From IMG/VR virus record IMGVR_UViG_2778261252_000001: 4,026 nucleotides of DNA, one strand, 5' to 3'. Of this stretch, positions 1 through 1,231 are shown one piece after another. This DNA is from a virus (taxonomy: Duplodnaviria > Heunggongvirae > Uroviricota > Caudoviricetes). Made by a program: the position numbers and the translations under genes. The notes under the pieces are model-generated. The model made no database searches. It was not told the DNA's origin and saw only the letters and a program-made list of their open reading frames with translations. How positions within the stretch are numbered: position 1 is the first letter of the stretch; each line of letters starts with the position of its first letter.

Positions 1-691
1 GCTTTGCCCACTGTTTTAACGAGATCGCCTTCAATCTGGTTCGCAGACAGTTTTCCCAGAACCCGACAGTTTTCATTAATCGTGACATTGTTGAGCGTCC
101 CTGAGTTCGCATTCACGTTACCGCTGATATCGGCATTTTTCGCCGTCAGCCGCCCATCCGGTGTCAGGGAAAATGCCGGAGGATTACCGCCGCTGGTAAT
201 GGTCGGAGCCGTCAGGCGTTTCAGGAACACGTCGTTCATGAATATCTGATCGCCCTGACCAACAAACATTGGTCTTGTGTTGCCATTAGACGGATCAATA
301 AACGCGATACGATTGGCGGCAACCAGAAACTGGCTCAGTTTGCCTTCCTCTGTATCCTCCATGCTGAGGCCAAGCCCCGCGACATAATGTTTGCCGTCTT
401 CGGTCTGCTCAATTTTGACGCCCCACATGGCATTCCATTTATCACTGGCGTCCTTCCACTCTTTCGAAAACTCCTCCAGTCTGCTGGCGTTATCCTCCGT
501 CAGCTCGACTTTTTCCAGCAGCTCCTTGCCGAGATGGGATTCGGTTATCTGGCCTTTGAAAAAATCCAGGTAACCTTCCGCATCATCGCTCGCCCGACCG
601 ACAGCCTCCACAAATGCCGATTTGCCAACGGTGTTCACACTGCGGATATAAAAGTAATAATCATGGCCCGGTTTGATATTGATACTGGCGG
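1..691 (-). pseudogene. J: Internal/C-proximal fragment of tail tip host-specificity protein J; lacks N-terminal part and native start; continues past the left edge of the window
   Basis: Minus-strand frame open from the TGA at 717-719 to position 1 with no stop. Translation reads ...[209 protein letters not shown]..., which I recognise from memory as the distal third of lambda gpJ. The frame is +2 relative to Z and overlaps the Z stop. No ATG near the 5' end; first in-frame start-type codon is GTG at 636-638. Not in the ORF track because it has no stop inside the window. Confidence 0.8.
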
Positions 692-719
692 TTAGCCCAG
701 CTCTTTCGGAAGACGTTCA
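687..719 (-). other. Apparent deletion junction fusing the truncated 3' end of Z to internal J sequence
   Basis: Z ends ...LPKELG-TAA at 692-694, 13 codons short of the recalled lambda length. J-like coding sequence begins at the same place in another frame (TGA 717-719 bounds the J-frame upstream). No intervening U, V, G, T, H, M, L, K, I genes and no insertion-sequence ends. Confidence 0.6.
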
Positions 720-1231
720 CGCCGTATCCGTTCAATATTTTGTTTAAACGCCGTGGTCAGCGGTACCGCCATCGGGATTTTCACCACATCAATGGGGTAA
801 CGGTTTTTCCCGGCCACACGCTGCATAACATGCCACCGGCCGTTTTTCAGTTGCTGAATAAACGCGCCGGGAATACGACGGTTACCCACCACAAGCACGC
901 TGCCGCCACCTTTCAGGGATGAACGCTGCCCCTTTTTACGACGCCTGCGGCGGGACAGGACAACCCGCGCATTACCCAGCTTGATTACGGGCAAATCCCC
1001 CCGGTTAACTTTGATTCTGGCCTGCGGATTTTTGACCGTGGCCCTTTTCAGCCTGGCCCTTTCCTTTACCAGTTTCCGGCGTACCTTTGTCTCACGGGCA
1101 ACCTGTGACGCAGACTGCGATATCGCGGATGAAGCAACGCGGTTAATGGCCATTGCGGCGGCACCGGGCACCGCCGTTTTGCTGATACGGCTGAGGTTTT
1201 CAACGGCCTGCTCAAGACCTTTTATGGCCAT
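692..1231 (-). CDS. Z: Tail completion protein Z, 179 aa; appears C-terminally truncated by about 13 codons relative to lambda gpZ (192 aa by recollection)
   Basis: ORF 692..1231 (-), [32 protein letters not shown]...[21 protein letters not shown] at 1229-1231 preceded by SD-like AAGGGGGA (1235-1241). Start lies 11 nt downstream of the FII stop, as in lambda. Stop TAA at 692-694 lies at the junction with J-derived sequence. Confidence 0.88.

Follow-up and report, generated by a model that had tools for sequence, protein, structure and literature searches.

Introduction

Gene Z of phage lambda is separated from the tail-tip gene J by U, V, G, T, H, M, L, K and I. In the stretch of DNA analysed here (4,026 nucleotides; hereafter the window) a lambda-like Z stops early and passes directly into sequence from the interior of J. 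What became of the tail genes, and what kind of element was left behind? The initial annotation of this DNA had proposed a single deletion with end points inside Z and inside J, which would leave a prophage with an apparently complete head module and no tail; its main alternative was an assembly chimera. From sequence comparisons we put a probability of about 0.9 on the reading that the window represents what is left of the late region of a cryptic lambdoid prophage at argU and was produced by illegitimate deletions. The element is a DLP12-type cryptic prophage in a state of decay that had not been described before; the process itself is ordinary, well-known prophage decay, for which no new mechanism is required.

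Results

Z is cut after codon 179 and joined to the interior of J

The reverse-complemented window was compared with the lambda genome (NC_001416) by blastn. Every coding sequence in the window lies on the minus strand, and this strand matches lambda in three collinear blocks, with breaks at window positions 693/697 and 3950/3953 (Table 1). The ORFs of the window have 92-100% identity to well-known lambda proteins. The break at Z falls where the initial annotation had predicted it (~690) and the match resumes inside J, so that exact end points could be assigned to both sides.

Table 1. Lambda-matching blocks, genes and deletion junctions of the window
Feature	Window position	Strand	Lambda position	Content or evidence
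Block 1	4026-3950	(-)	879-955	gene A, codons 57-81; 97.4% identity; blastn
Block 2	3953-693	(-)	5267-8515	3' end of C/Nu3, D, E, FI, FII, Z to codon 179; 94.9% identity; blastn
Block 3	697-66	(-)	17819-18450	J from codon 772; 91.5% identity; blastn
A', terminase large subunit gene A, codons 57-81 (codons 1-56 outside the window)	3952..4026	(-)	879-955	97.4% identity
A/C deletion junction	3949..3953	(-)		blastn, base-level alignments
'C/Nu3, 3' fragment of prohead protease/scaffold gene	3471..3949	(-)	from 5267	lambda match
D, head decoration, intact	3129..3461	(-)		ORF, Pfam, without internal stops
E, major capsid, intact	2048..3073	(-)		ORF, Pfam, without internal stops
FI, DNA packaging, intact	1608..2006	(-)		RefSeq annotation, Pfam, stop-free ORF
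FII, head-tail joining, intact	1243..1596	(-)		99.2% nucleotide identity to lambda, without internal stops
Z', truncated tail-completion gene, codons 1-179/192	695..1231	(-)		ORF, lambda gpZ identity, Pfam
Z/J deletion junction	691..694	(-)		base-level three-way alignments
'J, internal and C-terminal tail-tip fragment, from lambda codon ~774	1..691, runs out of window	(-)		translation, blastn, Pfam

The truncated Z gene (Z') is an ORF at 692..1231(-) for a product of 179 amino acids, all 179 of which are identical to residues 1-179 of lambda gpZ. Lambda gpZ has 192 residues and reads YALQHQLRMVIKR past residue 179; these last 13 residues are missing from Z'. The TAA stop at 692-694 and the J-internal codons that follow it in another frame, as described in the initial annotation, agree with our coordinates and translation. 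In Pfam comparisons, which speak against a chance similarity, Z' covers positions 1-176 of the 190 in PF06763 (Minor_tail_Z; E = 7e-76), short of the full-length domain, and the J remnant begins at position 62 of the 105 in the Ig_J_second profile and then continues into Phage_Tail_Tip. Thus, Z and J were both severed within domains.

Base-level alignments resolve the join. The Z parent reads ...GAGCTGGGCTA|TGCGCTG, the J parent reads ...GTACTGGATA|GCCGCCAGT, and the window reads ...GAGCTGGGCTA-A-CCGCCAGT. The bases TA at 694-693 are found in both parents, and the sequence from 691 downward is derived from J. Between them stands an orphan A (window 692) that fits neither parent, since Z has T at this position and the J comparators have G. 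A J allele with A at this position was sought in lambda, in PhiR47_1 and in the two closest chromosomal J genes (97% identity), and all four have G. Across the join the Z frame reads GGC TAA. The join itself thus supplied Z' with its stop, TA plus A being read in frame with Z; a plain TA join would give TAG, likewise a stop. A Z-J fusion protein was considered and rejected, since the frames differ (the J reading frame, window 3-695(-), is shifted by one base relative to Z) and the TAA stands at the join.

Relative to lambda, 9,309 bp are missing between Z and J, comprising the last 13 codons of Z, the genes U, V, G, T, H, M, L, K and I, and the first ~773 codons of J. The same interval amounts to ~9.33 kb when measured against the intact-looking prophage of E. 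coli XD35, which is 98.3% identical over C to Z and carries a 192-amino-acid Z, then the whole series from U through V, G, T, H, M, L and K to I, and after these a full J. The break in the lambda alignment and the full gene set of XD35 both bear out a deletion from within Z to within J of all tail shaft and tip genes. Neither lambda nor XD35 has a naturally short Z, and Z does not adjoin J in any of the 218 phage records that matched. The passage from Z to J is direct, without an intervening element, att-like site or long repeat. A repeat search at the join found no repeat, IS element or IS end, or palindrome; beyond chance 12-mers, no repeat family is involved. The initial annotation had also suggested a short microhomology around 690-695. 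What lies there is the 2-bp TA and the orphan base, and 16% of simulated random lambda deletions reach at least 2 bp (P = 0.16), so this microhomology is not above chance.

How the join could have arisen in one step or in several

We propose that a homology-independent deletion within a resident prophage would have led from Z nt 8515 to J nt ~17822-17825 (lambda-equivalent) and taken out ~9.3 kb. Replication slippage or end-joining would be the probable mechanism, and a single event is the simplest reading of the number of steps. A clean one-step microhomology join does not account for the orphan A, which could be a later G-to-A transition, a difference in the parental J allele (the nearest J has only 97% identity) or a 1-nt leftover of two deletions. 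The last of these would make the Z/J junction the product of two or more successive deletions, a reading we hold to be rather unlikely. It is favoured by the orphan base itself, which matches neither parent, and by the fact that multi-step scars do occur among related decayed prophages: the A/C scar of contig L019 (see below) is one, and the A/C junction of the window could stem from an L019-like form by a further loss of 78 nt. However, no intermediate form of the Z/J region was found and all carriers have the same junction, and the orphan base is accounted for just as well by a simple TA join in which TAG later became TAA through a G-to-A transition.

A second deletion joins terminase gene A to the 3' end of C

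The window holds a second junction, absent from the initial annotation, at which codon 81 of the terminase gene A is joined to the 3' end of C. The A parent ...GTGTCGGTTA|TTCC and the C parent ...CTTGTTA|ACAGC give GGTTAACAGC in the window. Here the microhomology is 4 bp, GTTA (window 3953-3950), common to both parents, and among random lambda deletions the probability of at least 4 bp is about 0.02. The TAA at window 3951-3949 ends A' directly after codon 81 as an in-frame stop made at the join. The gap is 4315 bp (lambda 955 to 5271) and takes in W, the portal gene B, the protease portion of C, the start of Nu3 and 88% of the gene for the large terminase subunit. The 3' fragment that remains has neither the start of C nor that of Nu3 (which begins at 5132 in lambda) and keeps the last ~159 codons of C. 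RefSeq labels A' as "terminase large subunit, missing C-terminus" and the C/Nu3 fragment as "S49 family peptidase, missing N-terminus". The C/Nu3 fragment also has 12 extra bases, spread over several small indels, relative to lambda.

We suggest that this second deletion took place by way of the 4-bp microhomology. Both lesions combined account for 13.6 kb of missing morphogenesis genes and leave a prophage that can build neither heads nor tails. Since the portal, the scaffold, the protease and the terminase ATPase/nuclease are gone, capsids cannot form, whether or not there are tails. The head module is thus not complete, as it had appeared to be in the initial annotation, and a release of tail-less capsids, which had been offered there as an experiment, is not to be expected. 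A reading of the locus as a producer of head-only particles or as a gene-transfer agent was rejected on the same grounds, since the element lacks the portal, the protease, the scaffold start and the terminase ATPase/nuclease.

D, E, FI and FII are retained intact, and J as a fragment

From D to Z the window is collinear with lambda to the base. The order of D-E-FI-FII-Z, the gene lengths and the spacers are those of the lambda late operon, with gaps of 10, 56, 42, 12 and 12 nt between the end of C, D, E, FI, FII and Z and a nucleotide identity of 92-99%; the lambda-like spacing described in the initial annotation is therefore borne out, gene lengths and gaps being equal. None of D, E, FI, FII, Z' and 'J has an internal stop. 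In contrast to the lambda operon, the element is without most of A and C, W, B, the Nu3 start, U-V-G-T-H-M-L-K-I and 68% of J. The stop-free state of the retained ORFs fits a recent deletion, and selection for their retention is also compatible with it.

The spacers hold G+C-rich hairpins between E and FI (window 2028-2045) and between D and E (window 3094-3107). The E-FI hairpin is terminator-like on the coding strand, with a T-rich run after it. Both appear to belong to the ordinary, conserved make-up of the lambda late operon.

Of J, the genome retains the last 359 codons; an ORF of ~1130 amino acids, a start codon and the N-terminal tip-complex domains, which are hallmarks of gpJ, are all lacking. 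There is no plausible start in the fragment, and the 340-amino-acid call made by some gene finders opens at an internal GTG, codon 20 of the fragment. Being out of frame and without a start codon, 'J is a pseudogene, and RefSeq labels it "incomplete, missing N-terminus". PGAP annotation already marks the fragments as pseudogenes, and the remnant is probably not expressed. We would therefore annotate the locus as the remains of a dead prophage, in which Z', 'J, A' and 'C are pseudogenes, and neither as a producer of head-only particles nor as a Z-J fusion.

The window is part of a cryptic prophage at argU

The window is 100% identical (blastn) to part of the chromosome of E. coli VE-V10-F (NZ_AP027971.1; assembly GCF_030162175.2). 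In this strain the left part of the locus reads fimZ - tRNA-Arg argU - intD - early genes - lysis genes - iss/bor - cos, followed by cos - nu1 - A' - 'C - D - E - FI - FII - Z' - 'J - lom - stf and, at the right end, by stf - tfa fragments - methyltransferase - ompT - envY - nfrA. Several of the early genes are pseudogenes, and the Q antiterminator is truncated. The element measures 29.5 kb between perfect 47-bp direct repeats of the 3' end of argU (positions 449-495 and 29866-29912 of the VE-V10-F locus, L001), whose placement with respect to argU and ompT/envY matches that in K-12. An argU site with a 47-bp repeat is a feature of DLP12 (PMC6379469). Thus, the element is a cryptic lambdoid prophage at argU of E. 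coli, the DLP12 site. Inspection of the flanks, which the initial annotation had advised, accordingly turned up att-type repeats, and the U-to-I tail genes are absent between Z' and 'J. The prophage is also defective, as the initial annotation had concluded: A is cut at codon 81, C and J are fragments, and nothing is left of W, B, U, V, G, T, H, M, L, K and I.

Two observations concern the rest of the element. At L001 15928-16881 it has cosN (GGGCGGCGACCT), nu1 and nt 1-955 of A with 98.8% identity to lambda, so the remnant retains a potentially cleavable cos site together with long homology for recombination with infecting lambdoid phages. The VE-V10-F remnant also has iss (a bor homologue) and lom, and it adjoins ompT.

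The junctions are carried by one lineage of E. coli

Both junction 50-mers are present in 12 distinct NCBI assemblies from several submitters, two of them as chromosome-scale contigs, and the window is 99.98-100% identical among these carriers. Between carriers the flanking sequences show 9-17 SNPs per 13-20 kb, and two assemblies have another lysis module, so the carriers are different strains. In complete RefSeq genomes of E. coli, either junction was found in only one of 5426, VE-V10-F. Neither JGI metagenome contigs nor GTDB species representatives gave a match to the Z/J junction when TAA or TAG was allowed. The junction is therefore lineage-restricted. In a wider collection the exact 179-amino-acid Z' is indexed in 66 blocks and the 135-amino-acid 'C ORF in 57. 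We suppose that the deleted prophage would have become fixed and been passed on as chromosomal DNA in one E. coli lineage.

The two assemblies with another lysis module (L005 and L010) were compared with the carrier L007. All have the same deleted late region, and two different upstream blocks meet it at a boundary near locus position 6278. In L005 and L010 the block is the K-12-type DLP12 Q-nmpC-lysis-bor-ybcV(-nohD) segment, 96.3% identical; the other carriers have an N6/N4 methyltransferase, DUF1327 and TonB_C. This arrangement indicates a module exchange upstream of nu1 that would have taken place after the deletions or independently of them.

Could the retained genes have been kept by selection? 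In that case D-E-FI-FII-Z' and 'J-lom-stf would not be neutral debris but exapted, for example as a recombination reservoir for incoming lambdoid phages or for host functions, which we regard as improbable. All retained ORFs are intact, the cos, nu1 and A(1-955) segment is nearly that of lambda, and the same late region is tied to two lysis modules. Recombination between lambda and the DLP12 of K-12 occurs readily over such homology, and DLP12 genes work in lambda (PMC3945230). However, the truncated Q antiterminator and a J fragment that lacks a start codon argue against function, and the near-identity of the carriers over 4 kb leaves no post-deletion divergence in which selection could show. 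Whatever their history, cos-nu1 and D-E-FI-FII, at 92-99% identity to lambda, are potential recombination substrates for infecting lambdoid phages.

The two sides of the Z/J join differ in their likeness to lambda (98% on the Z side and 91.5% on the J side), and the nearest J among the 5426 genomes is at most 97% identical. Such a contrast would be expected if the join had come from illegitimate recombination between a resident prophage and a second, different lambdoid element, either an infecting phage or one resident in the same cell, and not from an internal deletion. We think this very improbable, since the intact XD35 prophage gives the same contrast (98.3% over the head region and 93% in J), which is normal lambdoid mosaicism, and since both sides stand in the right order and orientation within one att-bounded element. 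Finally, although only one complete RefSeq genome has the junction and E. coli genomes hold several similar lambdoid prophages (a median of 3 places per genome match), an artificial join of Z to J through mis-assembly of two prophage copies, the main alternative of the initial annotation, has next to no chance of being the explanation, because identical 50-mers span both junctions in 12 independent assemblies from different submitters, the exact 179-amino-acid product is recorded from 29 contigs, and Z and J share 2 bp and no collapsible repeat. An internal deletion within one prophage thus remains our preferred reading.

Two draft contigs, L013 and L014, have a different, lambda-like Z allele and break off exactly where the junction lies, at Z codon 179. 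These contig ends likely reflect branching of the assembly graph in genomes that also hold the deleted copy, together with the selection imposed by an exact-protein look-up. L014 also has a compact island with a D5_N primase, SSB, a capsid E-like protein, HDPD, AlpA, a Nu1-like protein and Abi_C, which resembles a capsid-forming phage satellite.

Comparison with DLP12 of K-12 and with other decayed prophages

The element shares with the DLP12 of K-12 its argU site with identical 47-bp repeats and its state as a lambdoid remnant after a loss of morphogenesis genes. The intD genes are orthologous, and the intD/argU and ompT-envY-nfrA flanks are 99.3% and 98.4% identical. The nohD/A', rzpD-bor and tfa'-ybcY-tfaX modules are also shared, at 93-98% identity (93-99% with the flanks included). 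The two differ in how the late region was lost. In K-12 one 21-kb deletion runs from A (lambda 1018) to tfa (22119) with a TAT microhomology and joins A' to tfaD, whereas the window element has two smaller deletions (955/5271 and 8515/~17824), which spared D, E, FI, FII, Z', 'J, lom and stf. The early region differs as well and is yfdP/Q/R/T-like in the window element. Because K-12 retains 63 nt of A that are missing here, neither decay state derives from the other, and the two are independent. The element is thus a less eroded relative of the textbook DLP12, and one chromosomal site has harboured lambda-like late operons that decayed independently. Such independently decayed versions help to reconstruct the stepwise "grounding" of prophages.

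Two other prophages resemble the window element in their patchwork of internal head and tail deletions, in junctions with short microhomology and in a left breakpoint at A nt 955. One of them (L029), at the Qin site of strain CP61_Sichuan, differs in that W, B, C', D, E, FI and FII are kept and the stretch from Z to stf is lost. The other, the L019 contig, has lost D-E and the stretch from T to stf. In XD35, a gene for a TIR-domain anti-phage reverse transcriptase lies just past the tail-fibre genes (L018 39707-41311).

A recurrent breakpoint in gene A

Lambda A nt 955 (...CGGTTA|), the left breakpoint of the A/C junction, is also a breakpoint in further decayed lambdoid prophages, in which A is joined to different sequences; at least three right-hand partners, and possibly four, are seen in all. 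The partner is C at nt 5271 in the window type (3950-3953); a 13-nt filler and then C at nt 5206 in L019 (7851-7865); and A at nt 2269 in L029 (9087-9092) and in 1-2 other genomes. A protein fragment, P0030, departs from gpA right after codon 81, its partner being seen as protein only. The L019 filler resembles lambda 2193-2207, with 13 of 15 positions matching. The recurrence could reflect a hot spot or repeated short slippage, with the junction repeat used anew each time.

Further likenesses were noticed after the fact. All six breakpoints examined end in G-(G/T)-N-T-A, and the junction 11-mers of the window (688-698, GGGCTAACCGC; 3946-3956, TGGTTAACAGC) agree at 8 of their 11 bases. Each of the two junctions reads YTAA and provides the truncated upstream gene with a TAA stop. 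The left parents at both, again in a post hoc comparison, are GGY TAT (Gly-Tyr) codon pairs.

We see very little chance that the morphogenesis-disabling deletions are non-random, whether through sequence-directed cleavage or joining, a fragile site, a mobile element that targets TA or YTAR and leaves its footprint, or a structure-prone slippage site. If this were true, a non-random process would repeatedly "ground" lambdoid prophages; and if A nt 955 is a true hot spot, it would add a modest new fact on illegitimate recombination in prophages.

Three further candidates were discarded. K-12 DLP12 does not have the same A breakpoint, as its A runs on to lambda 1018 and the blastn match ends merely where the A of the window ends. 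K-12 Qin does not have it either, since nohA overlaps stfQ. A pair of equal 74-nt secondary deletions proved to be of 78 and 74 nt. The many "partial" gpA fragments of 81-92 amino acids in draft assemblies fit assembly graphs that branch after codon 81.
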